From NCBI GenBank assembly GCA_041862515.1, contig JBGVTJ010000317.1, positions 1,890 to 65,889 on the forward strand: 64,000 nt of DNA, written 5' to 3'. Origin of the DNA: Thermodesulfobacteriota bacterium. Lineage in GTDB: Bacteria; Desulfobacterota; BSN033; WVXP01; G020346125. Shown here in pieces: positions 7,617 through 43,498 of the stretch; within the stretch, counting starts at the first letter, position 1; every line of letters starts with the position of its first letter. Both the position numbers and the translations under genes were made by a program. The notes below the pieces were generated by a model. It had not been told where the DNA came from, ran no database searches, and worked only from the letters and a program-made list of their open reading frames with translations.

Positions 7617-7617
7617 G

Positions 7618-8943: not shown

Positions 8944-8962
8944 TGGGGGGAGGGCAAGATCC

Positions 8963-9833: not shown

Positions 9834-9849
9834 GGAGTTGTCTCGGGAG

Positions 9850-9963: not shown

Positions 9964-9977
9964 AGGGGGGAATTGAA

Positions 9978-10349: not shown

Positions 10350-10357
10350 GGGGATTT

Positions 10358-10753: not shown

Positions 10754-10764
10754 GGAGGTATATC

Positions 10765-11391
10765 TTGGCTCGATATACAGACTCGCAATGTAGGCTATGT
10801 CGGAGGGAAAACCTCAAGCTCTTTCTCAAGGGGGACCGGTGTTATTCCGATAAGTGTGCCATCGACAGGAGGCCCTATCCCCCTGGTCAGCACGGAAAAC
10901 GGAGGCGTGAATTTTCGGAATATGGAAATCAGCTCAGGGAAAAACAGAAGGTTAAGAGGATTTATGGAGTTTTGGAAGGGCAATTCCGCAATTATTTCAA
11001 GAAGGCGGAGCGAAAAAAGGGAATTACGGGCGAAAACTTGCTCATCTTTTTGGAAAGACGGCTGGACAGTGTCATTTATCGCCTCGGTTTTGCCAGTTCC
11101 AGGAATGAGGCCCGGCAACTGGTAAGACATTCCCACTTCTTGGTCAACGATAAGAAGGTGGATATACCCTCATACCTCATTAAACCCGGAGATGTGATTC
11201 GGTTAAGTGATAAGAACAAAAATATCTCCAGAATATCGGAGGCCCTCGAATCCGTTGCTCGACGGGGAGTTCCCCAGTGGCTCGAATTGGATAAGGCTAA
11301 CCTGAGGGGAACGGTGAAGGGCCTTCCCTCGAGAGAAGATCTGACGATGCCCATTCAGGAGCAGCTCATCGTCGAACTCTATTCGAAATAG
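10765..11391 (+). CDS. rpsD: 30S ribosomal protein S4
   Basis: 208 aa S4 with N-terminal CRLCRRE zinc motif. Confidence 0.97.
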
Positions 11392-11490
11392 AAAGTTTAT
11401 GGCGAAATCGGGGGGCCACTATTACCTTCCATCTTATGGAGTGGAAATCACCATTGGCTTTTCCCGTAGCCTCTATTCGAGGGGGAAATC

Positions 11491-12510: not shown

Positions 12511-12524
12511 GGAGAGATTCCATC

Positions 12525-13043
12525 ATGCGACATCAAAAAGCGGGGAGAAAGCTCGGTCGTGACTCAAGCCATAGGATATCCATGTTGAGAAATATGGTTA
12601 CCTCGTTTTTCGGCAAAGAGAGGATAGAGACCACGGATGCCAAGGCAAAGGAAGTTCAAAAACTCGCCGAAAAAATGATTACCCTTGGAAAACGAAGCAG
12701 CCTCCATGCAAGGAGGAATGCCCTGACCGTTATCAAAGACAGGAAAATTGTTAAAAAACTCTTTGAAGATATTGCCCCTCGCTTTCAAGACCGACAGGGG
12801 GGATATACACGAATCTTCAAAGCAGGGCATCGCCCTGGGGATGGGGCTCTTTTGAGTGTGATCGAGTTGACCACCAAAGCGCCTTCCGCCGATAAGGGAA
12901 AGGCGAAGACAAAGAAGAAAGCTTCCACATCCAAATCGGTTTCCAAAAAGAAAGGACCCACCAAAAAATCCTTGCCGAAGGGAGAAAAGGGAAAAAGATT
13001 ATCGAGGGGAAAAGGTCCTGGAGAAGGGGAAGAGACCAAGTAA
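12525..13043 (+). CDS. rplQ: 50S ribosomal protein L17 with ~50-aa lysine-rich C-terminal extension
   Basis: 172 aa; L17 core, then [32 protein letters not shown]... Confidence 0.93.
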
Positions 13044-13068
13044 TTCCGGTTTTGTCCAGGTAGAGGCA

Positions 13069-13935
13069 ATGCTGATCTCTCGCCCTTTTCATCGCCCGGA
13101 TATCAAAACAATGCTCGAATTAAGAAAGGTTAGTTTTACCTATAGCGATAAGGAAATAAGTGGATCTTTGCTCATAAATGGCGTTGACCTCATGGTTGAA
13201 AGGGGGGAATATATCGCCATCCTGGGGAGAAATGCGGCGGGTAAGACCACGTTGGCCAAATTGATCAAAGGCTTGCTCCGTCCCTCATCGGGGCAAATTT
13301 TAGTCGATGGACGACCAGTCAACCCAGGCGAGGGAGGGTCTAATATTGGCCTGATTTTTCCCAACCCCGATGACCAGCTCCTTTCCCCCCTAGTAGAGGA
13401 GGAGATAGCCTTTGGCTTGGAATGTATCGGGGTGGATAGGCAGATGATAAGAAAGAGGATAACGGAATATCTGGGTTTAGTTGGAATGAAGCAATTTCTC
13501 AGTTTTCCCTTACACTTCCTTTCCAAATGCCAGCAGCAAAGGGTAGCCATTGCGGCAGTCCTGGCCCTGGAACCGAATTACCTCCTCCTCGACGAGGCTA
13601 CCTCCTTCCTTGATCCCCATTGGAGAAGCCGATTCATGTCCGTTTTGTCTGAGCTGAACATCACAAGGAGGATGGCCGTCATCCACTTCACCACTTCCGT
13701 TGAGGAGGCCAGCTATGCTCATCTCATTCTCGTTTTGGAGAATGGTGAGTTAAGTGCTCAATATATCCCCGCTGAAATTTCCTCCCTTGGGAGTAGTTTA
13801 CTGGAAAAGGGCTACTGCCTTCCTCCTGTCGCCGAACTATCCCTCCTCCTTGAACAAATGGGCCACTCCATTCCCCCGGGAATCCCGACTATGGAGGAGA
13901 TGGAGGTGTTTCTCCTGAGGGCAATGAGGGATTAG
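13069..13935 (+). CDS. ABC transporter ATP-binding protein, ECF/EcfA-like, with degenerate signature motif
   Basis: Walker A GRNAAGKTT, Walker B LLLDEATSFLD, H-loop present, but LSGGQ replaced by LSKCQQQR; likely start at internal Met (13111, MLELRKVSFTY). Confidence 0.8.
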   Translation: MLISRPFHRPDIKTMLELRKVSFTYSDKEISGSLLINGVDLMVERGEYIAILGRNAAGKTTLAKLIKGLLRPSSGQILVDGRPVNPGEGGSNIGLIFPNPDDQLLSPLVEEEIAFGLECIGVDRQMIRKRITEYLGLVGMKQFLSFPLHFLSKCQQQRVAIAAVLALEPNYLLLDEATSFLDPHWRSRFMSVLSELNITRRMAVIHFTTSVEEASYAHLILVLENGELSAQYIPAEISSLGSSLLEKGYCLPPVAELSLLLEQMGHSIPPGIPTMEEMEVFLLRAMRD

Positions 13936-14174
13936 ACCTCTCCCGGCTATCGGCAATCTTGACGGCATTGTAAAAAGTTGAAATCAGACGGCAAAGAAAA
14001 AAGATCCAGATGTAAGGCGCGCAAATCCTGAGGAATGAGGCGTACATAGAAGTACGCTGCAGTGGCGAAGGATGAAGCGCAACGCAGCCCTTCGGCTTTG
14101 CTCAGGGCCGTGAGCATGTCGAACGGCAGATGGACTTTTTGCGAAGCCGTCAATCTTGAAAGAGGATAAAGCCA

Positions 14175-15056
14175 TTGGCCATCAAGATGAAGGGCAAGAA
14201 GGCCCTCCACGCTGTTATTTTCATCTTCCTTGGCGTTTTCCTTTTCATCCTCTTTCTCTATATCGGGTTCCCCTATGAAGCCCTCAAGAGAAGAATCATC
14301 GGGGAGCTGGAGGCTAAGACTCCCTTCCGTTATGAAATTGAGGAAATTCATCCTCATCCCTTATCGGGCTTAGCATTTAAGAACATAGGCGCCTATGCTC
14401 TGGTGGATTCAAAAAAGGTTAAAGTGTTAGGTGTGGAGCGGTTAAGGATTACCCTTTCCATCCTTCCCCTTGTGTGGAGAAAAGTCCACCTTCGATTTTG
14501 GGGAAGAATGTTAGATGGCACCGTGGACGGGGATTTTTCCAAAAAAGGAAGAGAGAACCAATTAACGCTTGTGGGAAGGAATGTGAATCTCCAACGCATC
14601 CAGTTTCTTCGGGAGGTTAAGGGGATGGAGATGGCGGGAATCCTGAAGGGGAAAACGCTGATGACTTTCAGGAAAGGGGATCTTTCTGGGCACTCCGGAT
14701 CAGCTGAATTTCAGATAAGCGAGGTGATGCTGAACAGATTGCCCTTGCCCGGCATAGCCCCTCTCCGAGTGGGCCACATTCAAGGTAGCATAGAACTAGA
14801 ACGTGGAAAAGTCATTATTAAGCAACTCGTCTCCTCAGGAGGGGATTTCAATGGTCAGGTACTCGGGAATATCTTCCTCAATTCCCATCTTCCCCAAAGT
14901 CGGTTCAACCTGAAGATTACGATTAAACCTTCCGGGAAATTCGATTCCAGGTATCGGATGCTTCTCTCCCTTTTCGGCCCGCAAAGCAAGACCGGGGGAG
15001 TTTACGCCTTCTCATTGGAGGGAACATTACTCCAGCCTCGTTTTGCGACGAGATGA
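14175..15056 (+). CDS. hypothetical N-terminally membrane-anchored protein (possibly GspN-like; assignment uncertain)
   Basis: 293 aa ORF with one N-terminal TM helix (LHAVIFIFLGVFLFILFLYIGF), RBS-like AGAGGATAAAG upstream. Confidence 0.6.
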   Translation: MAIKMKGKKALHAVIFIFLGVFLFILFLYIGFPYEALKRRIIGELEAKTPFRYEIEEIHPHPLSGLAFKNIGAYALVDSKKVKVLGVERLRITLSILPLVWRKVHLRFWGRMLDGTVDGDFSKKGRENQLTLVGRNVNLQRIQFLREVKGMEMAGILKGKTLMTFRKGDLSGHSGSAEFQISEVMLNRLPLPGIAPLRVGHIQGSIELERGKVIIKQLVSSGGDFNGQVLGNIFLNSHLPQSRFNLKITIKPSGKFDSRYRMLLSLFGPQSKTGGVYAFSLEGTLLQPRFATR

Positions 15057-19156: not shown

Positions 19157-21307
19157 TTACTTCTCTCTTTTCCCCTCTTTTTCCTTTTCTTCCTGTAAGG
19201 CTTTTTTGGCTCGGTCGAGCTTGAATCTCCTTGAGCTATAAGGGGTCATGCGGGAGGTGAGATTCCACGGGCCGTTGAAACTCTTGCTCTTTTCGGCCGA
19301 TTTCTCCTCCATCCTTGCGATCATCTCCTTCTCCCGTCTTTCCTCTTCCGTCTCATCTGAAATGAACTTCCTTCCTTCCATCTCCTCCAACTCCAGCGGG
19401 TGGTGAAGCTTCATCTCTTCTTCCGAGATCTTCCCGGTAATTTTCGCCCAGTTCATGGGATAGACTTCAGGATCGAACATGACGGAATAGAGGTGCCAGA
19501 CGAGGATGGTCATGCTTGCCAGGATAGCCTCATAGAAATGAATTATCCTGGCCACGTTTACACCCCAACTGGGTAAAAAGAGGCTGAAGATCTTAGGATA
19601 CCAAAGGATGAATCCCGTGAGCGTCATGACTAAGGTTCCCCACAGACCCCCAAAGTATTCGATCTTCTCTATATAGCTGTACCGCCCAAATTTCGGTCGT
19701 TTATTTGATATACCGAGATCATATCCGATCAATTTCAAGGCATCCAGGAGGTCTTGGAAGACGGGGATCAGGGCTATCATGTGGCTCCGCCCTCTTTTGG
19801 TGGATATCATGTACAGGACATGGTAGACGCCGAGGAATACTGTTACCACTCCCGCTATCCTGTGGAGCAGACCCCTCATGGGGCTGGCAGGAGGGTGAAA
19901 GAAAATCCCTACCCACCACGCATCGGGATATTTCAGTGCGAACCCCGTGACCACCAAAACGATAAAGCTTACTGCCAGGACCCCATGTTGAACCCTTTCG
20001 TTAACGGTGAGTCTCTCGTAATACTTGACCCCTTCCCGTTTCCTGACTGCCAGCCACTTCCGGATGAAATCAATCCCCCCGTGGAAGTACATGAAGACGA
20101 TCACGAGGATGATCAGGATAATATAAAATACCCTCACCCAGGAAGCTACCTTGTCCCCGATGGGGCCGGCTCCCGTTGACGGCATAAAATGGACGGGAAA
20201 CATGGCGAAGTTCTCCGAAGCACCCGGGTGACAACTTCCACATGTTTTTACAAGGTTGGACTTATGGATTGTCGACTTTGGATCGCTGGATGGCCGTATA
20301 TCGTGAACCCCATGGCAACTGGCGCAGTTGGCCGCAACCACGTCTCCTCCCTTTCTGGCCAAACCGTGGTAACTATCCAAGTAGGACTTGACCTTGATGG
20401 TGGATACCCCGTATTCCCGGGTGATCCACTCCGCTCCGTGGCATTGGGGACAGGTGGTCATGGCAATCTTCTGTTCCGCAATCGAGGAATCCGGGTCAAC
20501 CTTGGCCTTGATGCTGTGGATACCATGGCAATCGGTACAGACGGGGGATCGTCCCACCCCCTTTTTCGCCGCAAGTCCGTGGACACTTCCCTCATATTCT
20601 CGAAAAGCCTCAGGATGACACTTTCCGCAGGTGGAGCAGACATTTTGACGGGAGATGAGGGATTTTGGGTCTAAGGGACTCTTCAGATTGTGGGGGCTGT
20701 GACAGTCGCTACAGGCAGCAGCTCCCTCAATACCCCTCTTAACGGCACGTCCGTGAACGCTTTCCTTGTAAATCATCCCGGGCAATACCCGATCGGGAAT
20801 TCCCCGGTGTTCCTTCACGAAGGCCACATCGGCGTGGCATCGATCACAGGTCTCCTCCAAATTCAGGGGGTTAACCTTTGACATAATGTGGCCTTGGGGG
20901 TAGACGTAATGATAGCCGTGGCAGTCGGGACACCGAGCCGAATCCACCACACCGCGTTTGACGGCCTCTGCATGGAGGCTCCCCTGGTAAACCTTTTCCA
21001 CTTCCTCATGGCATTGGCCGCAGTTGACCGGTTTGAGCCTCGCGGTATGTTCCGCCTCCATATCCTCCAGATCGGTATGGCAACCTACACATGAGACCTC
21101 TGCATGAACGGAGTTCTCCCAGTTCGCCTTGTCCACATATAAGGAAACCTCCCTTCCTGCATCATCAACCTTAACGAGCCCCTTATCGCTATGGCATTCG
21201 AAACAGAGGCTATCCTCCTTTGCCCAGAGATCCCCAGGAGTGAGGAAACATCCAATGGTCAATAACACCAACGTCAGGACCCGAAATTGTGGTTTTGTCC
21301 TTCCCAT
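19157..21307 (-). CDS. CbcL-like inner-membrane quinol oxidoreductase: periplasmic 11-haem cytochrome c fused to HydC/FdnI-type dihaem cytochrome b, with charged cytoplasmic tail
   Basis: 716 aa; signal peptide, 11 CxxCH motifs, then 4-TM His-rich cytochrome b domain, then glutamate/lysine-rich tail ending ...NGPWNLTSRMTPYSSRRFKLDRAKKALQ. Confidence 0.85.
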   Translation of the reverse strand: MGRTKPQFRVLTLVLLTIGCFLTPGDLWAKEDSLCFECHSDKGLVKVDDAGREVSLYVDKANWENSVHAEVSCVGCHTDLEDMEAEHTARLKPVNCGQCHEEVEKVYQGSLHAEAVKRGVVDSARCPDCHGYHYVYPQGHIMSKVNPLNLEETCDRCHADVAFVKEHRGIPDRVLPGMIYKESVHGRAVKRGIEGAAACSDCHSPHNLKSPLDPKSLISRQNVCSTCGKCHPEAFREYEGSVHGLAAKKGVGRSPVCTDCHGIHSIKAKVDPDSSIAEQKIAMTTCPQCHGAEWITREYGVSTIKVKSYLDSYHGLARKGGDVVAANCASCHGVHDIRPSSDPKSTIHKSNLVKTCGSCHPGASENFAMFPVHFMPSTGAGPIGDKVASWVRVFYIILIILVIVFMYFHGGIDFIRKWLAVRKREGVKYYERLTVNERVQHGVLAVSFIVLVVTGFALKYPDAWWVGIFFHPPASPMRGLLHRIAGVVTVFLGVYHVLYMISTKRGRSHMIALIPVFQDLLDALKLIGYDLGISNKRPKFGRYSYIEKIEYFGGLWGTLVMTLTGFILWYPKIFSLFLPSWGVNVARIIHFYEAILASMTILVWHLYSVMFDPEVYPMNWAKITGKISEEEMKLHHPLELEEMEGRKFISDETEEERREKEMIARMEEKSAEKSKSFNGPWNLTSRMTPYSSRRFKLDRAKKALQEEKEKEGKREK

Positions 21308-21599: not shown

Positions 21600-23123
21600 C
21601 TACGTGCGGGCTTTGACGTGAGATAGATATTCATGATCGTCCTGGACATTGCTGTTTTTTGGTGATCCTCCAGTTTTTCCCCGGAAGCAGTTAGGGTCTG
21701 GTCCAAAGAGGTCTCCGAAGTAGGTGTAGGCACGTGCCCTGCATCCTCCACAGATATCACGGATTGAACAACGCCCGCACCAGCCTCCGATATTCTCCCT
21801 GTTCCTCAGTTTTATCAAGACAGAGTTTTTAGTCCAGACTTCCGCGAGAGTTTTTTCCCGAATATTTCCGATCTTCAATGGAAGCATGTCGCAGGGCCTG
21901 ATAGAACCATCAGGATCAACCGAAAGGAGAGTGATGCCTGCAGAACACCCCTTGGAGAAAAAAGCGGCTCCCGCCTGGATGCGGCCATAGGGGAGGAGCT
22001 TCATTGCTCCCTTGACTAACTGGTTAAAGGAGAATTCCCTCAGTATTCTATCGGCAACGAGTGGGGCCTGGGGAGCCGTCGTCGATATCTCCAGGGGACT
22101 CTCCCCCAAGATCTTACAGCGGGTTTCAGCCATGGTGAGATGGAGCATCTTCCTTCTTTTTTCACCATCCAGATCCAGTTCAACTTCATTACCTCCGCGT
22201 CCGCTGGGAACAAAGTTGAAGATAATGATCCTCTTGCAGCCCAGTTCCTTGGCCATCTGAACGATTGCGGGGATCTCCCGGAAGTTCGCTTGGGTGGCTG
22301 TGATTGAGATTCCCGTGTCCAGACCTACGTCTACTGCATCTTGAATCCCTGCAATGGCCTTTTTCCAGCATCCCTTTCCGCGAAGGAAATCGTGGATTTC
22401 CGGGGAAACTGAATCGACACTGACTTTGACGTAGTCGAGACCAGCTTCCTTTAAGCAGCCAGCATTTTCGCGGGTAAGGAGGGTGCCATTGGTGATGAGA
22501 ACGGTGTAAAGTCCTTTTTGATGGGCCTCGTGAATCATTTCAGGCAAATCGGGAGCAGTCAGAGGCTCGCCGCCGGCAATCATAAGGGCGTTAGATCCCG
22601 CTTCCGCAACTTGCTGGATTAACTCAAGCTTCTCACCTCGGGTTAGTTCGTCTTTCATGGGGTTTTGATCGGCATCCACATGACAGTAAACACAACGAAG
22701 GTTACAGGATCGAGTAATTTCCCATACAAGGATAACCGGTGCCCCTGATGGCTGTGGAGTGGTTGCCCCGAACCGGCTGAATCCTCGAAGATAATTGAGA
22801 ATCAGATGGCGAGTGTGTTTTTCCGACAAGAGCGCCCTGAATACAGGACGGTCCACTCCGAGCCAGCCTCTCGGTATTTCCAAGAGAAATTGATACGCCA
22901 ACACTTCCAGGTAACAGAGCCAAGGAATAGAAATTTTGTTGTCTCCTTTTTCACCATAGTGAGCCATGGCCCTTTCCAGGTGATTGTCGCGACAGAGAGT
23001 GCATCGAGAGCTGGAGCTTCTCAAAAAGGACCGGAAAAGGGGGAAACCCGCCAACCGCTGTAAGCGTTCAATTGTCCCGAGGGTTGGGGTCGAGTAAAAG
23101 GACCGATTGGAGGATATTTTCAT
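21600..23123 (-). CDS. radical SAM / SPASM-domain enzyme with ~150-aa N-terminal extension (peptide or cofactor maturase, function unknown)
   Basis: 507 aa; CNLRCVYC (Cx3Cx2C) at ~res 155, C-terminal SPASM Cys cluster CGRCSIRDICGGCRARAY; N-terminal extension could be an RRE-like domain. Confidence 0.8.
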   Translation of the reverse strand: MKISSNRSFYSTPTLGTIERLQRLAGFPLFRSFLRSSSSRCTLCRDNHLERAMAHYGEKGDNKISIPWLCYLEVLAYQFLLEIPRGWLGVDRPVFRALLSEKHTRHLILNYLRGFSRFGATTPQPSGAPVILVWEITRSCNLRCVYCHVDADQNPMKDELTRGEKLELIQQVAEAGSNALMIAGGEPLTAPDLPEMIHEAHQKGLYTVLITNGTLLTRENAGCLKEAGLDYVKVSVDSVSPEIHDFLRGKGCWKKAIAGIQDAVDVGLDTGISITATQANFREIPAIVQMAKELGCKRIIIFNFVPSGRGGNEVELDLDGEKRRKMLHLTMAETRCKILGESPLEISTTAPQAPLVADRILREFSFNQLVKGAMKLLPYGRIQAGAAFFSKGCSAGITLLSVDPDGSIRPCDMLPLKIGNIREKTLAEVWTKNSVLIKLRNRENIGGWCGRCSIRDICGGCRARAYTYFGDLFGPDPNCFRGKTGGSPKNSNVQDDHEYLSHVKART

Positions 23124-33337: not shown

Positions 33338-33667
33338 CTATTTCTTTTTCAATATCTCCTTCGCCCTGAACAATTGGAAGAGCTTGGAACTATATGGTTT
33401 TACCTTGGGAGTAAGGGTCCAGGGGCCTTTGAATTCTCTTCTTCGCTCCTCTCTCAGCGTTTCTGCCTGAGCTATCAGGGCTTCCTCTTTGTCACCGATG
33501 GTGACTATTCGAAGCTTTTTTTCGATATACTCTAGAATGGATACCACTAAGAGAGCCACTGCCCCTATAGAAACAACGATGGCCAAGACTGCCACGCCAA
33601 AGACGAGCAGAATGGTAAACGCCCACCAGAGTAAGTTCATGTGCTTGCTCCCTTTTAGGGTTCCCAA
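33338..33667 (-). CDS. small membrane protein (2 TM) with conserved C-terminal GPWxLT...PYSS...F.L.RAK tail motif
   Basis: 109-aa ORF (probable start MNLLWWAF at 33640); tail REFKGPWTLTPKVKPYSSKLFQLFRAKEILKKK matches C-terminus of cytochrome 19157..21307. Confidence 0.6.
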   Translation of the reverse strand: MGTLKGSKHMNLLWWAFTILLVFGVAVLAIVVSIGAVALLVVSILEYIEKKLRIVTIGDKEEALIAQAETLREERRREFKGPWTLTPKVKPYSSKLFQLFRAKEILKKK

Positions 33668-33743: not shown

Positions 33744-34400
33744 CTATTTGAACCTCTTCTCGCCACAGCGTATAGCCGTATCCAAGGTATTCTCGTCATT
33801 TGCATAGGGGCACGTGTACTTCGGGTTATAAGCACAATAAGGATTGGAGGCCTTATTGAAATCGATAATAACACGTTTCTCCCCTACACATTCCACCTCT
33901 AAATATCGCCCATTTTCATAGGTTTCCAAACCGTTGGTCTTATCCTTGAAGGGAAGAAAGAAATTGGGCCTCCCCAAGTGTCGGTAGATTGTGAGGACGA
34001 ATTCTCGACCGTCAATGCTAAATCTGAATTTTCCCTCTTTGACATATTTCCGAAAATTACCCTTGCTGGTGGGAAGGTTGATGTATTCGGTGCGGCCTTT
34101 GGGGTTCCTTTCGATCTCTCCCGTGAACACATATCGGAAATCTATGGGATAGTAGTCCAGTTTTTTGAAATCGATGATATCCTGAGCTCTCAGTGGGGAC
34201 TTGGGGTTTTCCTTAAAAAATCGGTCTTTTTCGACCCTCTCCTCCTCGATCTCTTTCTGCCTGGATTGGAGCAGATTTGAATCAAACTCCTCGGTTAAAG
34301 CCAGAACCTGAAGAGGGAGAATGAGATTTGTCCCTACCAAAAGGTATTTTATCCACTTTTTCCCGGTTCCTCCGCTTTTTTTCGGCTTTTTCAATACCAT
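33744..34400 (-). CDS. secreted DUF1684-like protein, paralogue A (family assignment tentative)
   Basis: 218 aa, signal peptide; shares RDRFFKE..SPL, YYPID, IPFRDKTNG, TYEGGRYL, DFNxAxNPxCxYN with 40846..41481. Confidence 0.7.
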   Translation of the reverse strand: MVLKKPKKSGGTGKKWIKYLLVGTNLILPLQVLALTEEFDSNLLQSRQKEIEEERVEKDRFFKENPKSPLRAQDIIDFKKLDYYPIDFRYVFTGEIERNPKGRTEYINLPTSKGNFRKYVKEGKFRFSIDGREFVLTIYRHLGRPNFFLPFKDKTNGLETYENGRYLEVECVGEKRVIIDFNKASNPYCAYNPKYTCPYANDENTLDTAIRCGEKRFK

Positions 34401-34504: not shown

Positions 34505-34756
34505 TCAAATTTCCTTCCCAATCCGCGTAATCTTGATCCATAGAGTCTTGATAAGATAAGCGATGGCCATGGATAGCAAGCCAAAAATCATGATCGTCAC
34601 TGCCGCGCCATAGAGGAATTTCCCCAAATTTACGTTCCCGGTAAATAGTAACCCCTTGAGGTATATCGCTGCCGTAATGAGGATAAAAATGCAGAACCCC
34701 AGGAAGAGGCTATAGTAAATCCACCAGAAAAATGACCTCATATTCCTTCCATTCAT
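34505..34756 (-). CDS. hypothetical small 2-TM membrane protein
   Basis: 83-aa ORF between cytochrome and DUF1684-like gene, two hydrophobic helices. Confidence 0.45.
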   Translation of the reverse strand: MNGRNMRSFFWWIYYSLFLGFCIFILITAAIYLKGLLFTGNVNLGKFLYGAAVTIMIFGLLSMAIAYLIKTLWIKITRIGKEI

Positions 34757-34796: not shown

Positions 34797-36947
34797 TTAT
34801 TCCTTCTTGCCCAGCATAGGTTCTATCTGATCTAGATTCTTCTTGGCAGCCTCGATCAGTTCCGCTGCATACTCCAGGTTATGGACCCCTTTACCCTCTC
34901 CCACCAGACTAATATTGTATTCGGCATCTCCGAACAATTTGGTAAAGGCGAAGGTGTGCTGTCCCCTTTTCTCCAATCTTTGGATATGTTCCTTTATCCT
35001 TTTCAGCTTTGAAGAGGTTCTCTTGAGCAATTCATCCGCCGTTGACTTCCAATCTTCGGCCATCTTCCCGTAACTTTCATCATGGCACTTGATGCAGGTG
35101 GCCCTGATGGCCTTGAAGGATTCCTTCTGTCCTTCAGCGATACTGCGGTGGCAATCCACGCATTCCACCACATCGACTTTGATGCTGGGTAGGTCTTCGA
35201 CACCGATGCCAGTTTTCCCGGAAAAAAGCCTTTTTACGCTCAGGTGACAATCCCCACACGCTACCTTTCCCGCCCCATCGCCATGGTGGCACTCAGCGCA
35301 ATTCTTCAAGTACGTTTTGCCATGGTTCTCCCTGGGGGAGTGACAGTTGCGGCATTGCAAATCCATCCCCATGTGGACATCATGGGGGAATTGGATCTCA
35401 TTGAAGGGAACGGTACGTCGCTCTAACCCCACGTGGCAAAGGCTTGTACACGTATATTCCGTTTTATACTCCTTGAGCTGATACCCGTCCTCGATGAGGG
35501 TCAGGGCCTTTTCCATATTATTGTTGGCATGGTTCAAGAGCTTCAGAGCGTATTCGATGTTGTGAACCCCCTTGCCCATGAGGGAAAACGTATAGTTGTA
35601 CCTGGCCTCGTTGATAAGATTTTGGGCTTTCTTGAAGCGTTGACCCTCCAGCCCCGCTTTACCCGCTTCGTATAGCTTCTTTTGAGCATTAAATATTCGG
35701 CTGTTGACCTCATTCTCCGCCTTAACTAGGAGCTCCTTCCAATGGAAGAGCATCTCGTCGTAACCCTCCCCATGACATCCCACGCAGGACTCGGCTAAGG
35801 CCCTTTCCGAATATTTTGTCGTATATAAAGCCGCCTTGCTCTCCTCTCGGGTTTTGTGGCATCCCACACAATCCACTCTGATGGTGAACATCTTGCTCGG
35901 TGAATCGGTGACACCGATCCCTCCGATTCCCGTGTACATCTCCTTAGGTCCCCTATGCATCTGTTCTATATGACAGTGATTACAACTCTCCGTAAACTTC
36001 GCCATGGTGGGCATTTCCCCGACTTCGTGTCTTATTTCGGTGTGACATCGATAGCATTCGATTTTGTGATCGGTGACGTGCATTCGATGGGTAAATTCCG
36101 ATGTATATTTCGTCGCGAGAAGATTGGGCTCATTATGGCACTCCAGGCACTTATTCTCAGGGACGTGGCCATCGCCTTTATTGTGGCCTACGTGGCACTC
36201 AAGACAGCTCACTCCCCGCTCGATGTATCGCTTGTGGTTGAAGCTTATCCCCTTGACCGAGAGTTCGCCCTTTGGCTGGATATGGCATGCACCACATTCC
36301 GCGCAGGAGAGGCAATCCTCTTCACCCAGAGTTCCTGCCTTATAGAAGTGACAGATGAAGCAGTCCGTTTCCGTAACGGTTAAATGAGCGCCTTGAACGA
36401 TTTGGGCGTGGCACGTAGTACAGCGCAGTTTCTTCCCCCTTCTCAACTCCTCCAGATGTTTTCCGTGGTCAAAGGCCACGTTCTTGAAGACCATTTTTTC
36501 CTTTAAATCCTCACTGCGGTGACATCCCTTCTGAAGACAGCTGGCGTCACTGATCTCCGCATGAGGCATAGTCGGCCCTTTGCCGGTGATAAACATGACC
36601 AGGGAAACCTGTCCATCCTTCCATTTTCCCTTCAAATGGTTGAAAAAGCCGGGTTCATAATGACATCCGGCACAGGGAACGAAGTTGTGGGTGGACGTCT
36701 TCCAGGAATCTACGTACACCTTCATGTTATGGCAGAGATTGCAGAAGGTAGGAGTTTCGGTGAATTTGTACATAGTCCCAGCCAGAAATATCAGGATGAA
36801 AAGACAGATGCCGAGGAACAGGGTGACCCCCTTCTTGTGTTCCTTCGTCCCCCGGTAGGTCTCCTTCCAAAAGGAGATCCAGAAGTTAGAGACGTATTTA
36901 AACAGATCACCTAAGGTCCTAAATCCACGTCTGATTAAGCTTCCCAT
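34797..36947 (-). CDS. NapC/NirT-family membrane-anchored multihaem cytochrome c (~17-18 haem motifs)
   Basis: 716 aa; N-terminal TM then CNLCHNMKVY (NapC/NirT signature), ~16 CxxCH plus CX4CH (CLQKGCH) and CX3CH (CTSLCH) motifs. Confidence 0.85.
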   Translation of the reverse strand: MGSLIRRGFRTLGDLFKYVSNFWISFWKETYRGTKEHKKGVTLFLGICLFILIFLAGTMYKFTETPTFCNLCHNMKVYVDSWKTSTHNFVPCAGCHYEPGFFNHLKGKWKDGQVSLVMFITGKGPTMPHAEISDASCLQKGCHRSEDLKEKMVFKNVAFDHGKHLEELRRGKKLRCTTCHAQIVQGAHLTVTETDCFICHFYKAGTLGEEDCLSCAECGACHIQPKGELSVKGISFNHKRYIERGVSCLECHVGHNKGDGHVPENKCLECHNEPNLLATKYTSEFTHRMHVTDHKIECYRCHTEIRHEVGEMPTMAKFTESCNHCHIEQMHRGPKEMYTGIGGIGVTDSPSKMFTIRVDCVGCHKTREESKAALYTTKYSERALAESCVGCHGEGYDEMLFHWKELLVKAENEVNSRIFNAQKKLYEAGKAGLEGQRFKKAQNLINEARYNYTFSLMGKGVHNIEYALKLLNHANNNMEKALTLIEDGYQLKEYKTEYTCTSLCHVGLERRTVPFNEIQFPHDVHMGMDLQCRNCHSPRENHGKTYLKNCAECHHGDGAGKVACGDCHLSVKRLFSGKTGIGVEDLPSIKVDVVECVDCHRSIAEGQKESFKAIRATCIKCHDESYGKMAEDWKSTADELLKRTSSKLKRIKEHIQRLEKRGQHTFAFTKLFGDAEYNISLVGEGKGVHNLEYAAELIEAAKKNLDQIEPMLGKKE

Positions 36948-37124: not shown

Positions 37125-38732
37125 ATGGAACTGAAATTCGTCGTGTGGCCGTTGGTGGGCTCATTTTTCCTTTTGACTATTGGTTCCCACGCCGCAAAAG
37201 GGGCTCAGCAAAGGCGTGATTTGACCATTGTTTACACCAACGATGTCCTCGGCGAAATTGAGCCCTGTGGATGATTTAAAAACCCCCTTGGCGGTGTCGC
37301 CAAGAAGGCAACGATAATCAAGGGGATGAAGGAGGAGGGGAGAAACCTCCTAGTGGTTGACGCCGGGAATATGCTCTTTCGAAAGCCCCCAACTTCTCAA
37401 GAGCGGAGAAAAGAAGCCCTGTTGAAGGTTAACGTCCTCCTCAGAGCGTATGAAGAGATGGGCTATTCCGCCGTCAACATAGGGGAGAAGGATTTAACCT
37501 TGGGCCTTGGATTCTTGGGTGAGGTAGCGAGAAGAACGAAGTTCCCCTTCATTTCAGCAAACTTGATCGACAAAAAAAGTCGAAAGACCGTTTTCAGGCC
37601 CTTTATAACGGAGGAGATCGCGGGAATAAAGGTCGGCGTAATCGGGTTGATGGGCCGTTGGGTCAATGAGGTGCTTAAGGAAAAAGAGCCATATTTGGAG
37701 GTTCTGGATCCCCTTGACGCGGGTAAACCCTATGTGACGGAGTTACGGAAAACCTGTGACCTCGTCAGCGTGCTATCCCAACTAGGGGAGCGGGGCGATA
37801 GGGAATTAGCCTTGAAGGTCCCTGGCATCGATATTATCGTCGGGGGGAAGCGGGGTAAGAGGATTAGGTATTCGAAGATCAGAGAGACCCTCATGTACCG
37901 CCTGGAACCCCGTGGGGGGTATTTGGGGAAGCTGGATTTATCTCTGGCCCGAAAAGGCAAGCCGCTAAACCTAACCGATTATGAACAAAGGGAGCGCATT
38001 GTTAAGAAAATGGAGACCATCCAGAAGCGATGGATGGAAATAAAGAGCGAAATAGAAGGGGACAGCGGAAAATCTCCCTCCAAGAGGGAGGTGAGAGTGA
38101 AGGAACTGGCTATCCTGGAAAGAAGGGGAATGGAACTCCAACTGCGCCTAGTGGACTTCGACCAGAGGAATCTCTATAAGAATGAGGTCATCCCCATCAA
38201 GTTGGCCATCCCAGATGATCCGGTTATCGGCGAGATGATTGATGGATACGGGATAGAGGTGGCAAAGCTCTATGGAATTGAGCGAACCCTTGAGAGAGGC
38301 CCGGGAAAACCCCCATCCGATGCTCAAATTTTGGCCGGCATCTCGAAGAGCAGTTCTTACCAGGGGGCGATCTCGTGTAAAAAATGCCACAGACGAAATT
38401 TCGAAGCCTGGTCCACTACCGAACATGCCAAAGCGACCCAGACGATATCTGAGGCTTTCAAAAAGGGGCGGCCGTTGGAGGATTGTCTCATCTGCCATAC
38501 GACCGGTTATGGGGATATCAGGGAATATCGGTTTGTACAAGAGGTTCCCCTTTATCTTCGGGGGGTACAGTGCGAGGCTTGCCACGGGGTGGGAAAAGGG
38601 CACCCGGGGTTTGGAGCCAAATTCAGGAGGGTCACCTTAGGGGTCTGCCGCAACTGCCATACGAAGGATCAATCTCCTGCCTTTCACTACAAGAGCTATC
38701 TGCTCCGAATCGGCTGCACCATTCGGAAATGA
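37125..38732 (+). CDS. candidate selenoprotein: signal peptide + degenerate metallophosphatase/5'-nucleotidase-like domain with Cys-Gly-Sec (TGA at 37272..37274) + C-terminal tetrahaem cytochrome c
   Basis: ATG 37125 with AGGAG RBS; MELKFVVWPLVGSFFLLTIGSHAAKG...LTIVYTNDVLGEIEPCG-TGA-FKNPLGGVAKKATIIKG... continuous in the same frame into the 37326..38732 ORF; SECIS-like hairpin 12 nt after TGA; CKKCH, CLICH, CEACH, CRNCH at C-terminus. Confidence 0.6.
37287..37304 (+). ncRNA. SECIS-like stem-loop (CUUGGCG-GUGU-CGCCAAG) 12 nt downstream of in-frame UGA
   Basis: Perfect 7-bp stem, GU-containing tetraloop, spacing similar to E. coli fdhF SECIS (~11 nt). Confidence 0.5.
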
Positions 38733-38741: not shown

Positions 38742-40664
38742 TTATCTCAGAAATGCCCATATGATGAGCAGCAGGGCGATCAACCCTACAAATATCGCTC
38801 CGAAACCGGAGAGCTGCCCCCAGAGGTAGGTAAGAATGGCGGGGTGTTTGGCCTTAAAGGTTTCGAGTTTTCCCTCGGCGACTAGCCTATCATAGTGCCC
38901 CGGCCGATCATCGATGAATTCCACCTTGGGAAATCTCCCGGTGAAGATGCCCACGTCCAGAGGAAATTTCTCGGGTCTGAAATGGACGTTGAAAAAATGA
39001 GCGGTAAAAACATAACCGGCAGCCAGGAGGGCCTCGTCTGAATGGATGATATAGGCAATATTAAAGACCCATCCGGGGAGAAAGATCGAGAAGAAGTCGG
39101 GGAACCACAACATCAAGCCTGTAAGCCCTATGGCTAACATCCCCCAAAAAACCGCCAGGAAATCGAATTTCTCCCAGTAAGTCCACCGATCGAACCGAGG
39201 TTTGGGGCCCTTTCCGAAAAACCACTTGAACATTCCCTTCATATCCTTCACGTCCTGCCATCTCGGTGCCAGGGAGTCTGGACCGAAGAGTCTCTGTAAA
39301 GGATTCCCCTTCACATCCTTCCGGTAGAAAGTGAAATAAACGATATTCACCAAAACTGCGCCGAAGTAGGCGAAGGTAATGACCGCGCAGAATCGGTGAA
39401 TATCGCCAGCGATACGGGCTCCGCCAAACAACTTCACCAGCTCCTTGGCCCAGAGTGAGTGAGCGAATTTCAGGGGAAGGCCCGTCAAGACCAAGAGGAT
39501 AAAGGTTACCATCATGATGAAGTGGATGACGATGTCGAAGTTATCGAACCTCTGATAAATCTCCCCCGATTTTTCCACGTAAGGTGGCAGGTATTCCCCT
39601 GCTGCCCACATCTTCCTCTTCTCCCGATAGGCCCGTTGCCACCACATGATGGAGTGAAACCACCAGAAGGCAAAAACGGAAAGCAGTAAGGCTGTCATGA
39701 AGACGAAGGCAGAATAGAGGAAGGGATAGTTCTCCTTGTCGTAGTGATTGGCATGGGCATACCACTGCACGAAATTTGCATTGGCCTTGGTGTGACATTT
39801 GCCACAGGTTTCGACAAGCCTATTCTTGGAAATGGTCGAACTGGGATTGTCGGATTTCAAGGCGCTGTGGTAGCCATGGCAATCGGCACAACCCGCCACA
39901 AAGATAGGATACCCCAGGTATTCTACCTTGCCGTGATAGCTCTCCTCGTAGGTTTCGTTTGCGATGAGCACGACCTTATTGCGCCTCATCATCTCCTCAT
40001 CGGCATGGCATTTCTGGCAAACCGCCGTATGGAAGTTGCGCCGAAATTCGATGTTCTCAGGCTCCTCCCCCGACAGGATGGGGATTTTATGAAGCCCGTG
40101 ACAATCCGAGCAGTCCGCCGAGTCCCTGTTCCCAGCATAGACCGCTTCCCCGTGGATGCTTTCCGAATACCCATCATCATCGTGGCATATCGTGCACGTT
40201 TTGATTACCCTAGCTTTGTCATCCCCCCAGGGTGTGATTTCATGGATCTTCACATGGCAGTCCGGACACCTCACATCATTGATGAAGTGGGAGCTGGCGT
40301 AGTGTTCGGCCCCCTCGACTTTGTGGCACCGATGACAGGTGACCGACTCGGCTTGGATTCTTCCCCCCTTTGCCGTGTGTTCCTCGATATCAGTGATATC
40401 CCAGTGGCAGCTATTACAGGAATTGGCCCCGTGGACCGACTTGGCGAATTTGGTCTCATCGACAGTTTCATGGCACTCCAGGCATTTTGAGTTGTCGATA
40501 CATTCCAAACAGTACTCCCGCCCCCTGATTTTAAACTTCTTCTTGGCCAGCTCAAGTTCCTCATGGAATTTCAATTGCTGAGCGGAACTGGTCACGAGAA
40601 GGGAGAAAAGGGATAGGAAGAGGAGGAGAGATGAAAGAAAAGAAATCTTCAGTCTCGATCGCAT
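38742..40664 (-). CDS. CbcL-like inner-membrane quinol oxidoreductase: 9-haem cytochrome c + HydC/FdnI-type cytochrome b
   Basis: 640 aa; signal peptide; 9 CxxCH; C-terminal 4-5 TM His-containing cytochrome b domain. Confidence 0.85.
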   Translation of the reverse strand: MRSRLKISFLSSLLLFLSLFSLLVTSSAQQLKFHEELELAKKKFKIRGREYCLECIDNSKCLECHETVDETKFAKSVHGANSCNSCHWDITDIEEHTAKGGRIQAESVTCHRCHKVEGAEHYASSHFINDVRCPDCHVKIHEITPWGDDKARVIKTCTICHDDDGYSESIHGEAVYAGNRDSADCSDCHGLHKIPILSGEEPENIEFRRNFHTAVCQKCHADEEMMRRNKVVLIANETYEESYHGKVEYLGYPIFVAGCADCHGYHSALKSDNPSSTISKNRLVETCGKCHTKANANFVQWYAHANHYDKENYPFLYSAFVFMTALLLSVFAFWWFHSIMWWQRAYREKRKMWAAGEYLPPYVEKSGEIYQRFDNFDIVIHFIMMVTFILLVLTGLPLKFAHSLWAKELVKLFGGARIAGDIHRFCAVITFAYFGAVLVNIVYFTFYRKDVKGNPLQRLFGPDSLAPRWQDVKDMKGMFKWFFGKGPKPRFDRWTYWEKFDFLAVFWGMLAIGLTGLMLWFPDFFSIFLPGWVFNIAYIIHSDEALLAAGYVFTAHFFNVHFRPEKFPLDVGIFTGRFPKVEFIDDRPGHYDRLVAEGKLETFKAKHPAILTYLWGQLSGFGAIFVGLIALLLIIWAFLR

Positions 40665-40845: not shown

Positions 40846-41481
40846 CTATTCGAATTTCTTCTCCCCGGCCTTAATCTCCAAGTCGAAATTATTCTCCTCC
40901 GGAGGAATGATACAGATAAACTTCTCGTTATAAACACAGGAGGGGTTGTAGGCCATATTGAAGTCGAGGATCGTTCTATAACCCGGCATGATGATTTCTG
41001 CATCCAGGTAGCGTCCTCCCTCGTAGGTTCCATCTCCATTGGTCTTATCCCTGAAGGGGATGAAGAGGTGGTCGCTCCCGGGGGATTTATAGAGCTGAAT
41101 AGTGAATTCCTTGCCATTGATCTGAAATCGGAACCTTCCGTATCGAATGTATCTCTTCTTTATTCCCTTGTTGGTTAGGAAATTGGCGTAGTATTTCGGG
41201 TTCATGATGTGGTACTTATATCGTTCGATGTTTCCCTCGAGGCGATACTTCAGGTCAATGGGATAATAAGCCAACCCTTTAAAGTTACTACGGTGTGAAT
41301 CATCCAAAGGTGACCGAGAATGTTCCTTAAAAAATCGGTCCCTCCCCTCCCTAAAGTCCCTGATGCGCTGAATGTTCTGTTGGTCGGGTTTCTCCAGAGG
41401 ATGACCCAGTGCGCTCCAAAGGGATGTGATCATAAGAAGAAGGACCCCGGTGAAAAGCTTTGAGCCTAATCTCGCAACCAT
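40846..41481 (-). CDS. secreted DUF1684-like protein, paralogue B (family assignment tentative)
   Basis: 211 aa; signal peptide; conserved blocks shared with 33744..34400. Confidence 0.7.
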   Translation of the reverse strand: MVARLGSKLFTGVLLLMITSLWSALGHPLEKPDQQNIQRIRDFREGRDRFFKEHSRSPLDDSHRSNFKGLAYYPIDLKYRLEGNIERYKYHIMNPKYYANFLTNKGIKKRYIRYGRFRFQINGKEFTIQLYKSPGSDHLFIPFRDKTNGDGTYEGGRYLDAEIIMPGYRTILDFNMAYNPSCVYNEKFICIIPPEENNFDLEIKAGEKKFE

Positions 41482-41545: not shown

Positions 41546-43498
41546 TTATTGAGCCTTGAGGGCTATCTCCATCTTTTTTGAGAATTCTGCCGGGCTAATC
41601 ACCTCATAGAAACGGAGGTTTTCAATCTCCTTGCCTCGTTGATCAAGAAAGATGACCGTTGGAACACCCTTGATATGGTACCTGTCCATCAAAGATTGAC
41701 TCTTGGGTTGAGTCGAGTGGGTAAGATCAACCCGTAACGTTAAGAATTGTTTTGCTTTGGCAATAACTGGTGGGGATGCAAAAGTCCGTTGTTCCATTAT
41801 TCGACAGGGAACACACCAGTCCGCCGTGAAATCGATGATGACGGGCTTTGCCTGCTTCTTTGCCACTTGGATCAGCTCCTCATGGTAATCGAGCCATTGG
41901 ATGCCTTGCCGATGAAAGAAGAGGTGACCAGGTGCCAAAACGAGATACGAAGAAAGGCAGAGGCCGAAGATGCCCATACCCCTTTTAATACCTCGGAAGC
42001 CTCTTAAGCCCTTACCTGATCGTTCAACCCATCCCAAATATATCGAGCCCATGGCTGCAATGGAAACCTGCAGGAGCCAATAGAGTTCGCTGGAGATGAG
42101 ATACCGCAAGAAATAGACGGCCATTCCCAGCATAACGAATCCAAAAATCTTCTTCACCCAGACCATCCATTCACCGGAGCGCGGAAGCCTATTGAGACTT
42201 CCCGAGAGAATACCCAGGAAGACGAACGGGGTTCCCATGCCCACGGCCAAGACAAAGAAGGTCCAAAACCCGAGGACTGGATTCCCCCTCTGCCCAACGT
42301 AGGACAATAACCCAATGATAAAGGGTCCGATACAAGGGGCAGCAAGAATCCCCACGGTTAGGCCCATGAAGAGGGCCCCGAAGATCCCCTGCGATGATTG
42401 CCCGCCAATCCGGGTGAGAAAGGCTGGAATCCTGATTTCGTAGACACCAAACATAGAGAGGGATAAGCCCACGAGGACGCAAGCGATCAAGAGGAGGACG
42501 AGGGGATTTTGTAGCGCTGACCCGAATAGGCCTCCCGTCAAGGCTGCGACCGTTCCAAGTATGGAGTAGGTGATTGCCATGCCCAGAACGTAAGAGAGGG
42601 AGAGGACAAACACCCACCGTGAACTCCCTGCCCCTTGGGCAACGAAGAACCCGACGGTAATGGGGATGAGGGGATAAATACAAGGCGTCAGGTTGAGCCC
42701 CAATCCCGCCAGGAAGATGATAAAGAGGGAAAGGATACCTCCTCTTTGAAAGGGAATCGGGGAGCGAATATCTTGGGCTTTGGAAAAAATCGTCTCTCCT
42801 GGGGACTGGAAGATTTTGGCGTGGATGGGGCGGATCTCCGTTGCATCCTTGGTGATGGGGATCGAAGTCGAAAAGGCTGCTTCCATTGGAAGAAGACAAC
42901 TCCGATCATCGCAAGCCTGGTATTTTATTTTGCCCGAAATCCGGCTTTCCCCTGGGGCTGCTTCGGCGGAGACAGCGAGGTCTATAAAGACAAACACTTT
43001 GCCCTCATATATTTCCAGCTTTCCCTGGATAAATTCGAAGGTTTTGCGTTTGGGTTTCGGATAGTGCATCTCTTCCACTGTGAAGTGGGGATCCGCCTCC
43101 AGAACGACCTCTGTTGGAATGAGCGATGTTTCAAGGGGTTTATGGGCGTTAATGTGCCAGCCTTTTTCAATATCCAGTTGGAGGGCAACCCGTATTTCTC
43201 CACCCGAGAGGGCGCTGTTTTTCGACAAAAAAACCTTGGTTGAAAAGACCTTTGGCTGAGCATGGGAAGCGGTGGCCATGAAAAGGGCTAACAGGATTTG
43301 AATAATGGTGGCCCAATAGGACCCGGTTATACCCTTCATACGGGTTATGATCCCCATGAGAGGAAAAGCAACGGGAACTCCCTTCGCAATAGTGTAAGAG
43401 AAAGACTTTTGCGAGAAATGGATGATAAATCCAAAGATCCCAAATAGAAAACTTGTACTGAAATATAACAAAATAACAAAAACGATGAGCTTCGTCAA
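41546..43498 (-). CDS. dsbD: thiol:disulfide interchange protein DsbD (alpha domain - CcdA-like TM core - thioredoxin domain)
   Basis: 650 aa; TM-core Cys LTPCIYP and APCIGPF, C-terminal WCVPC thioredoxin motif; true start probably internal (signal peptide MKGITGSYWATIIQILLALFMATASHA). Confidence 0.88.
   Translation of the reverse strand: MTKLIVFVILLYFSTSFLFGIFGFIIHFSQKSFSYTIAKGVPVAFPLMGIITRMKGITGSYWATIIQILLALFMATASHAQPKVFSTKVFLSKNSALSGGEIRVALQLDIEKGWHINAHKPLETSLIPTEVVLEADPHFTVEEMHYPKPKRKTFEFIQGKLEIYEGKVFVFIDLAVSAEAAPGESRISGKIKYQACDDRSCLLPMEAAFSTSIPITKDATEIRPIHAKIFQSPGETIFSKAQDIRSPIPFQRGGILSLFIIFLAGLGLNLTPCIYPLIPITVGFFVAQGAGSSRWVFVLSLSYVLGMAITYSILGTVAALTGGLFGSALQNPLVLLLIACVLVGLSLSMFGVYEIRIPAFLTRIGGQSSQGIFGALFMGLTVGILAAPCIGPFIIGLLSYVGQRGNPVLGFWTFFVLAVGMGTPFVFLGILSGSLNRLPRSGEWMVWVKKIFGFVMLGMAVYFLRYLISSELYWLLQVSIAAMGSIYLGWVERSGKGLRGFRGIKRGMGIFGLCLSSYLVLAPGHLFFHRQGIQWLDYHEELIQVAKKQAKPVIIDFTADWCVPCRIMEQRTFASPPVIAKAKQFLTLRVDLTHSTQPKSQSLMDRYHIKGVPTVIFLDQRGKEIENLRFYEVISPAEFSKKMEIALKAQ

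Follow-up and report, generated by a model that had tools for sequence, protein, structure and literature searches.

Predicted exported DUF1684 paralogues accompany a multiheme cytochrome and selenoprotein gene cluster in a subgroup of Thermodesulfobacteriota

DUF1684 (Pfam PF07920) is a widespread protein family of which structures have been available since 2012. In this study, we analyzed two of its genes, designated DUF1684-A and DUF1684-B, in a 64,000-nucleotide stretch of contig JBGVTJ010000317.1 (GenBank assembly GCA_041862515.1) from a Thermodesulfobacteriota bacterium. This whole stretch is referred to as the window. A genome scan matched the family in at least 598 species genomes, including those of Bacteroidota, Chloroflexota, Thermodesulfobacteriota, haloarchaea, and others. 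The helix-plus-beta-rich fold is known from four structural-genomics entries, one for rrnAC0354 (2LNU) and three for the Halobacterium protein Q9HRE7 (VNG_0733H; 2LOK, 4DLH, and 4FJ4). The sole experimental clue to the family is the induction of one of its genes by hypochlorite in Haloferax. In Haloferax volcanii, HVO_1043 is a top chromatin immunoprecipitation sequencing (ChIP-seq) target of the thiol-based regulator OxsR, through which hypochlorite induces it 10- to 40-fold (PMC9426492). The same study classed HVO_1043 with thiol-relay proteins on modeling that puts its two thiols close together, gave no biochemistry, and pointed to two cysteines separated by seven residues near the C terminus (C-x7-C) as a feature of the family (PMC9426492). 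Beyond this report, the searchable literature contained nothing relevant on DUF1684, PF07920, IPR012467, HVO_1043, or Q9HRE7. No NCBIfam model for DUF1684 was found.

The two window proteins share family, fold, C-x7-C pair, and motif blocks with Q9HRE7, rrnAC0354, and HVO_1043. They differ from them in setting. The solved or characterized proteins are cytoplasmic haloarchaeal proteins without signal peptides, and HVO_1043 is a stand-alone, stress-induced gene, whereas the window harbors two divergent paralogues that are predicted to be exported and are located in a respiratory cytochrome cluster. DUF1684-A (33744..34400, minus strand) encodes 218 amino acids with the cysteine pair at C189/C197, and DUF1684-B (40846..41481, minus strand) encodes 211 amino acids with the pair at C182/C190. 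A first-pass annotation of the window had described two paralogous open reading frames (ORFs) at exactly these positions and had assigned them to DUF1684 by their motif pattern. Both statements proved correct. A and B are 42% identical across 202 amino acids (BLASTP; E value, 2e-50), and the Pfam search, which had been proposed as a check, returned PF07920 over profile positions 2 to 139 of 139 with 137 bits for A (E value, 7e-40) and 136.5 bits for B (E value, 9.5e-40), relative to a gathering cutoff of 25 bits, and not the lack of a family match that would have spoken against the assignment. For B, profile score, fold, and C-x7-C agree (3 of 3), and A is placed by profile, phmmer, and C-x7-C. 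The NCBI entries MFB0508293.1 (A) and MFB0508298.1 (B) already carry the name "DUF1684 domain-containing protein." Both are genuine members of a known, structurally solved family that has no assigned function. No third copy was detected by tblastn in the 64-kb window.

At the N terminus of both proteins, a basic segment precedes a hydrophobic stretch not seen in cytoplasmic homologues. The Kyte-Doolittle 15-residue maxima at the N terminus were 1.85 and 1.87, compared to 0.53 and 0.68 in the rest of A and B, respectively. B has an A-L-G cleavage-like site. To judge from their sequences, the N termini of A and B fit Sec export, and the hydrophobic segment of A could be an uncleaved anchor instead of a signal peptide. 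The start codon of B lies 64 bp past the dsbD stop codon and is preceded, 8 nucleotides upstream, by the ribosome-binding site GGAAGGAG; the ribosome-binding site of A is weak or unclear. In neighbor-joining trees, A and B fell into separate, well-populated subclades of a Thermodesulfobacteriota-centered, putatively exported branch. This placement, together with their 42% identity, marks the two as ancient paralogues belonging to different subtypes and rules out a recent local duplication.

The neighbors that had been named in the first-pass annotation, a NapC-type cytochrome, a nine-heme CbcL-like cytochrome, and DsbD, were borne out by Pfam searches and motif counts. The CbcL-like gene (38742..40664, minus strand) encodes 640 amino acids with nine CxxCH motifs in the N-terminal half and an FdnI/HydC-type cytochrome b membrane domain; Pfam assigned PF01292 to residues 372 to 551 and multiheme domains besides. 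This is the architecture of Geobacter CbcL, nine CX2CH motifs and an FdnI/HydC-type diheme b domain, to which the window protein was likened through the published description; by this architecture, the neighbor is of the CbcL type (PMC6295460). An accessory DUF1684 protein or UshA-like selenoprotein is not mentioned in the passages of this account that were consulted. On the other side of the cluster, the NapC/NirT-type gene (34797..36947, minus strand) encodes a membrane-anchored multiheme cytochrome of 716 amino acids with 16 CxxCH and 2 longer-spaced motifs. Its N terminus (residues 41 to 184) belongs to the NapC/NirT family by PF03264 (33.1 bits; cutoff, 24.1), and c3/c7-type domains were found in addition. 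Since its score in the NrfH equivalog model TIGR03153 (65.7) is under the cutoff of 134, it is not NrfH itself. ImcH, which we take to belong to the NapC/NirT superfamily like the N terminus of this protein, has seven hemes and three helices, whereas the window protein has 16 to 18 heme motifs and one N-terminal anchor. Between the two large cytochrome genes, and on the opposite strand, is a gene for a UshA-like selenoprotein with a tetraheme cytochrome c554 domain (UshA-c554; 37125..38732, plus strand). Upstream of DUF1684-B is dsbD (41546..43498, minus strand), which encodes a three-domain thiol:disulfide interchange protein (DsbD_N, DsbD_TM with 182 bits, and a thioredoxin-like domain in Pfam). 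Its true start may be located downstream of the TTG at 43498, since orthologues have 592 to 641 amino acids. The claim that each DUF1684 copy is directly beside a cytochrome gene holds for B. It does not hold for A, because an ORF of 83 amino acids (34505..34756, minus strand), which encodes a small two-helix membrane protein without a Pfam or NCBIfam match, intervenes between the NapC-type gene and DUF1684-A.

Contigs with orthologues of B (71 to 79% identity) keep the full gene order, which is SLT/LysM, DsbD, DUF1684-B, CbcL-like, UshA-c554 (opposite strand), NapC-type, 83-amino-acid ORF, and DUF1684-A. The exact sequence of A was recovered on six independent short metagenome contigs, on each of which it follows the NapC-type gene and the small ORF. 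The position of the latter is kept at loci L001 to L006, L087 to L090, and L135, and it was seen only in the lineage of the window. At L091 (JGI Ga0374083_0962596, 7001..14624), DsbD, DUF1684-B, the CbcL-like gene (full length according to tblastn), and UshA-c554 are kept. The NapC-type gene, the 83-amino-acid ORF, and DUF1684-A are jointly missing from this locus, and Fer4-NrfD-molybdopterin oxidoreductase genes are present instead.

One locus outside this lineage departed from the neighborhoods of other DUF1684 genes, which are described below. At L097, a DUF1684 gene whose product is 50% identical to A abuts, in convergent orientation, the gene for a cytochrome 64% identical to the CbcL-like protein of the window. 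A search was therefore started from the cytochrome side. The CbcL-like family has more than 5,300 homologues, and a metagenome scan with a 22-sequence alignment yielded 80 CbcL-like loci with 42 to 93% identity to the window protein, in which DUF1684 genes were counted by six-frame hidden Markov model searches. At 75% identity and more, DUF1684 was found in the cluster in four of five loci, the fifth of which has no upstream flank. Between 57 and 69% identity, it was present in 12 of 34 loci, with L097 left out of the count, and at 56% identity and less, in none of 41. The difference between the latter two groups is significant when relatedness is ignored (Fisher's exact test, P = 2e-5). Many middle-tier loci are of uninformative length; of those with at least 3 kb downstream, DUF1684 was present in 4 of 12 and absent from 8 of 12. 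The neighborhood analysis that had been suggested as a check thus recovered cytochrome synteny in CbcL-like loci of at least 57% identity and no such synteny across the listed loci of the family.

In a second clade, the CbcL-like protein is 61 to 66% identical to that of the window, and one or two DUF1684 genes are located in a CbcL-like/UshA-c554/NapC-type cluster at varied positions and orientations. At least five different gene orders were observed in ten distinct lineages (less than 95% DUF1684 identity), in addition to L097. The CbcL-like gene is followed by a convergent DUF1684 gene (L097, L108, L109, and L118 to L120), by DUF1684 and the NapC-type gene (L127 and L134), by UshA-c554, DUF1684, and the NapC-type gene (L123 and L172), by UshA-c554 and DUF1684 (L117), or by UshA-c554 and a convergent DUF1684 pair (L116 and L124). 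Such a pair is also present on the short contig L099. The genes of these pairs are arranged tail to tail, 14 to 50 bp apart (L116, 9785..11063; L124, 10103..11408; L099, 1925..2801). Each pair consists of two different paralogues, one from the B supergroup and one of C type. Subclade C, which includes P0155 to P0160, is made up wholly of cluster-associated DUF1684 genes, and the extra copies of L116 and L124 are placed in the B supergroup, so that B type plus C type mirrors B plus A of the window. By this placement, the cluster has retained one paralogue of B type and one of A/C type in both clades. The arrangement of the convergent pairs suggests joint retention of the two subtypes, which could function as a pair.

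The flanks of the two clades differ (SLT/LysM and DsbD in the lineage of the window, ABC-F and Zn-ribbon in the second clade), as do the positions of DUF1684, and the set common to both consists of the three cytochrome genes and the DUF1684 paralogues. Of the arguments from synteny, the comparison between clades is the stronger one. Taken together, DUF1684 synteny with this cytochrome cluster is conserved, lineage restricted, and tolerant of rearrangement, and the cluster is the only conserved DUF1684 gene neighborhood that we found. Judged by the searchable literature, a tie of predicted exported DUF1684 paralogues to a CbcL-like/UshA-selenocytochrome/NapC-type cluster in a subgroup of Thermodesulfobacteriota appears to be new. 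Two further observations concern the surroundings of these clusters. Fer4-NrfD(-Mo) genes adjoin many of the second-clade clusters (L099, L110, L116, and L124). At L097 (2648..6093), which derives from an independent metagenome-assembled genome (MAG), a 208-amino-acid Oxidored_molyb gene (PF00174, sulfite-oxidase/MsrP type) is located directly upstream of, and co-directional with, DUF1684.

The conserved motif blocks of the two proteins that the first-pass annotation had quoted are real. Across 53 diverse homologues, F143, D145, R157, F174, N175, P180, C182, Y184, C190, N197, and G206 (B numbering) are invariant, and several of them fall within these blocks. The two cysteines that had been described as invariant are 100% conserved in each subclade examined and in all full-length homologues from the genome loci. 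They are the sole Cys, His, or Met positions kept across all subclades. Neither A nor B contains a CxxCH motif, as would be expected of c-type heme proteins, and A has a single His. Without CxxCH or a conserved His or Met, heme binding by A or B is unlikely. A Pfam match of the thioredoxin type was found for neither protein, which sets them apart from the thioredoxin-fold, CxxC-containing proteins of the DsbA, DsbC, or CcmG type.

Structure prediction for B, another of the checks proposed earlier, recovered the DUF1684 fold. The AlphaFold2 model (mean predicted local distance difference test [pLDDT] score, 89.8) matched the DUF1684 structures 4DLH, 4FJ4, 2LNU, and 2LOK in a Foldseek search of the PDB (E value, 1e-16; TM-score, up to 0.91; identity, 31 to 34%). 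The match of the model to 4DLH_A had an E value of 1.1e-16, a target-normalized TM-score of 0.91, and a root mean square deviation of 1.9 Å. No fold other than DUF1684 was found in the PDB below an E value of 0.4. Likewise, phmmer searches of PDB sequences returned solely structural-genomics entries named "uncharacterized protein," namely, 2LNU (4.9e-26 for A) and 2LOK/4DLH/4FJ4. Among these, 4FJ4 is a mercury complex of Q9HRE7, and within its aligned 168 residues the C-x7-C pair provides the only cysteines. From this we infer that the pair was very likely accessible and reduced in the 4FJ4 crystal.

The gene between the two large cytochromes appears from its sequence to encode more than a tetraheme c554 protein, namely, an exported UshA-like selenoprotein-tetraheme fusion. 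The ORF as called (37326..38732) matched NCBIfam model NF041198 (UshA_like_PCGU) with 340 bits (cutoff, 275) over profile positions 61 to 519, and Pfam places a Cytochrome_C554 domain (tetraheme) at its C terminus. ORF callers shorten the gene to the start at 37326. Extended upstream, the frame has an ATG at 37125 and encodes a signal peptide and YTNDVLGEIEPCG-TGA-FKNPLGG, whose TGA occupies 37272-37274. This TGA sits in EPCGU, which includes the PCGU motif of NF041198, and is predicted to be read as selenocysteine. The TGA and its surrounding motif are kept in 14 of 14 complete homologues of related clusters. A hairpin about 13 nucleotides past the TGA (-15.1 kcal/mol; z score, -1.44) is not significant alone, and its placement is consistent with a bacterial selenocysteine insertion sequence (SECIS) element. 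The best-scoring minus-strand "intrinsic terminator" of the window (37282..37309, 12-bp stem) coincides with it and probably reflects this SECIS-like structure, which belongs to the selenoprotein gene on the plus strand, and not a terminator. The selenoprotein also shows weak similarity to SoxB. UshA-like CxU selenoproteins are a recognized family of unknown function (PMC2398784, PMC13188914). The cluster thus joins DsbD, a Cys-Gly-Sec protein fused to four hemes, two C-x7-C proteins, and two multiheme cytochromes of the quinol-oxidizing type, and periplasmic thiol/selenol chemistry, as predicted from these gene products, is its recurring theme.

We tentatively favor an explanation in which C-x7-C is the functional center of these proteins, a redox-active dithiol or a carrier of a thiophilic ligand whose state is coupled to this cytochrome module. 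After Sec export, the pair would be a periplasmic dithiol cycling between dithiol and disulfide; alternatively, it would carry a thiophilic ligand, for example, a soft metal(loid) or sulfane sulfur. The module would determine the redox state of the pair, through DsbD (in the lineage of the window) and/or through low-potential hemes and the selenoprotein. The DUF1684 proteins would then be accessory thiol-chemistry parts of the cytochrome module and not electron-carrying cofactor proteins. That the thiols are redox active, which partners they have, and which way electrons flow are all inferred here. Among the roles that had been suggested earlier (redox shuttle, heme handling, or metal binding), heme handling is the least likely, with no conserved His or Met, and thiol redox or thiophilic-ligand chemistry better fits the invariant C-x7-C, the 4FJ4 mercury complex, and the Haloferax data. 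A more specific version, which we consider doubtful, holds that the B-type and A/C-type proteins form a dedicated periplasmic dithiol pair, an unrecognized thiol/selenol branch of the quinol-linked cytochrome module. Electrons supplied by the CbcL-like and NapC-type cytochromes, or by DsbD, would be passed to C-x7-C, present as a disulfide, a persulfide, or a metal(loid)-thiolate, with participation of the Cys-Gly-Sec selenoprotein-tetraheme fusion, in a periplasmic and cytochrome-coupled counterpart of SoxYZ/SoxB or DsrC/DsrMKJOP. Like SoxYZ (with SoxXA and SoxB) and DsrC (with DsrMKJOP), the DUF1684 proteins are small, have conserved cysteines on the C-terminal side, and are encoded near c-type cytochromes and a protein of the SoxB/UshA superfamily. 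It should be noted that this is a speculative analogy of context. DUF1684 has no sequence or fold kinship with SoxY or DsrC, its cysteines are located in an ordered region (pLDDT above 95 in the model of B) and not on a flexible arm, and the cluster of the window contains no sox or dsr genes.

The order of the cysteine region is one of several findings that weigh against a coupling of DUF1684 to the module, and most of the others favor the view that the synteny was merely inherited. According to that view, which is the main rival, DUF1684 has a general role in thiol chemistry or oxidative stress, as in Haloferax. The ancestor of one order-level clade happened to carry it beside cytochrome genes, which it serves in no specific way, and it has not yet been moved elsewhere; we regard this as possible, if on the unlikely side. 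The 80 loci listed among the genome matches span Thermodesulfobacteriota, Chloroflexota, Bacteroidota, Halobacteria, Methanophagales, Bathyarchaeota, Actinomycetota, Acidobacteriota, and others. In about half of them (Bacteroidota and Thermodesulfobacteriota), the DUF1684 protein has a signal-type N terminus, and the others look cytoplasmic. Outside the lineage of the window, none of about 67 listed loci encodes a protein with at least three CxxCH motifs, or a DsbD homologue, within 5 kb. A family-wide link to multiheme cytochromes was thereby ruled out. Nor did the family as a whole show a link to DsbD, CcdA, or thioredoxin: the 119 neighbors in other phyla matched 136 Pfam families, none more than four times, no thioredoxin-type family recurred, and a DsbA-like gene at L094 and Thioredoxin_3 at L093 were isolated exceptions. 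BLAST clustering and Pfam scanning of the neighbors revealed no neighbor conserved across phyla, and what they gave was lineage-specific cases (major facilitator superfamily and CrcB genes in Flavobacteriaceae and molybdenum-related genes with CbiMNQO in the sister group of copy B) and generic ABC ATPases. Family-wide, DUF1684 is a stand-alone gene with no cytochrome partner. Even relatives of A and B at 46 to 63% identity are mostly found in other contexts, among them those of L093 to L095 and sites beside NifU (L096 and L011), TusA, or housekeeping genes (L098 and L100), and sister subclades thus occupy unrelated surroundings.

Within the cytochrome-associated loci, the same view draws on the clusters that lack DUF1684 despite adequate flanks (L105 to L107, L110, L111, L121, L129, and L139). 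About half or more of the adequately flanked orthologous clusters are without it, and DUF1684 is therefore dispensable for the cytochrome module. The earlier proposal of a dedicated partner of electron gates is overstated in this respect, as it also is in view of the counts of 0 of 41 at 56% identity and less and 0 of about 67 listed loci, although the synteny on which it was founded is kept in other genomes. Among the ten lineages, DUF1684 identity (58 to 100%) and CbcL identity (74 to 100%) are correlated (r = 0.76), which is what vertical co-inheritance predicts, and the genes for an ABC-F ATPase and a Zn-ribbon protein upstream of the CbcL-like gene of the second clade are also kept in place. 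Since these unrelated flanking genes are equally syntenic, second-clade synteny partly reflects shared ancestry. DUF1684 is usually convergent with the CbcL-like gene or separated from its neighbors by 190 to 260 bp in this clade, an arrangement that gives no sign of cotranscription. In the window, a promoter-like site is located between DUF1684-B and the CbcL-like gene, in a scan barely above shuffled expectation; promoter and terminator counts across the window were close to that expectation as a whole. DsbD adjoins DUF1684-B only in the lineage of the window (L087 to L092, L101, and L102) and in none of the second-clade loci. What inheritance without coupling explains less readily is that the association outlasts at least five gene orders and two clades with different flanks, that both clades preserve two paralogue types in the cluster, and that DUF1684-A, the NapC-type gene, and the small ORF are jointly absent at L091. 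Moreover, 12 of 34 is far above the less than 1% that we estimate for one to three copies per genome.

Two narrower proposals give the cysteine pair another task. In one, which we think unlikely, C-x7-C chelates a soft metal or metalloid, for example, Hg, As(III), Cu(I), Ni, or Co, and the exported forms are periplasmic binding or chaperone proteins that, in this cluster, present or sequester a metal(loid) on which the cytochrome/molybdoenzyme module acts. The mercury complex of the haloarchaeal homologue, in which the pair provides the only cysteines of the aligned region, is in keeping with this, as are the molybdenum- and Ni/Co-related neighbors of the copy-B sister subclade, the arsenic- and thiol-related neighbors at L093, and the Fer4-NrfD-molybdopterin genes that adjoin many cytochrome clusters. 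However, mercury is a routine heavy-atom derivative that binds any free cysteine. DUF1684 is convergent in the metal-transport contexts, which come from one related lineage; the cluster of the window has no metal-resistance regulator or transporter; and other polar positions that do not vary in the family (D, R, N, and Y) suggest an active site or a pocket instead of a simple bis-thiolate. The other proposal, which we find improbable, is that of a cytochrome-maturation helper, either a DsbD-dependent reductant or chaperone that keeps the CxxCH thiols of the 9- and 16-heme apocytochromes reduced or a heme-handling protein. DsbD is known to supply the periplasm with the reductant that cytochrome c maturation requires, DUF1684-B follows dsbD closely with a ribosome-binding site of its own and lies directly upstream of the nine-heme gene, and each paralogue accompanies a very heme-rich cytochrome. 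As expected of a DsbD client (such as CcmG, DsbC, or DsbG), a predicted exported protein with a conserved cysteine pair is encoded directly downstream of a full-length dsbD. Unlike those clients, the DUF1684 proteins lack a thioredoxin-like fold and have C-x7-C in place of CxxC. They also offer no conserved His or Met for heme ligation. The adjacency to dsbD is confined to one lineage, with no case in the second clade, and heme-rich CbcL homologues at 56% identity and less never occur with DUF1684 (0 of 41). Many orthologous clusters contain the same cytochromes without it, and cytoplasmic DUF1684 forms are widespread in organisms without such cytochromes.

The association is a functional lead and not the discovery of a function. 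A and B are ordinary family members in a lineage-restricted context. If a C-x7-C center coupled to the cytochrome module is the correct explanation, the inner-membrane electron gates of uncultured Thermodesulfobacteriota from sediments would gain a thiol/selenol branch. If the dedicated dithiol pair were real, it would be the first function for DUF1684. If the link is not real, what is left is two routinely annotated DUF1684 genes.

Some DUF1684 loci without cytochromes have distinctive surroundings of their own. In Thermodesulfobacteriota MAGs of the copy-B sister subclade, the single DUF1684 gene has a trace-metal neighborhood without cytochromes. At L007 to L010, it is located between a ModA-like binding protein gene with a small helix-turn-helix regulator (ModA/ModE type) and a convergent CbiM/CbiQ/CbiO Ni/Co energy-coupling factor transporter, and at L095, it is located between MoeA/MobB and CbiM/CooT. 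L093 (ERZ6864471 contig, 1..14654) contains DUF1684 in a co-directional run with ArsP-type permeases, Thioredoxin_3, two PF04060 iron-sulfur proteins, XdhC, DUF169, three DGC-domain proteins, and an SBF/ACR3-type transporter, and is a possible metalloid- or thiol-handling island.

In the window, DUF1684-A is followed downstream by an ORF of 100 to 109 amino acids with a single helix (33338..33667, minus strand), which has no family match in Pfam or NCBIfam; a 100-amino-acid gene occupies the equivalent position on L001 to L006. A second c-plus-b fusion cytochrome of 716 amino acids (19157..21307, minus strand), with 11 CxxCH motifs and an FdnI-type b domain, has no DUF1684 gene beside it and adjoins a radical SAM/SPASM protein gene (21600..23123, minus strand). 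It is about 28 to 29% identical to the L097 and L091 orthologues of the CbcL-like protein.

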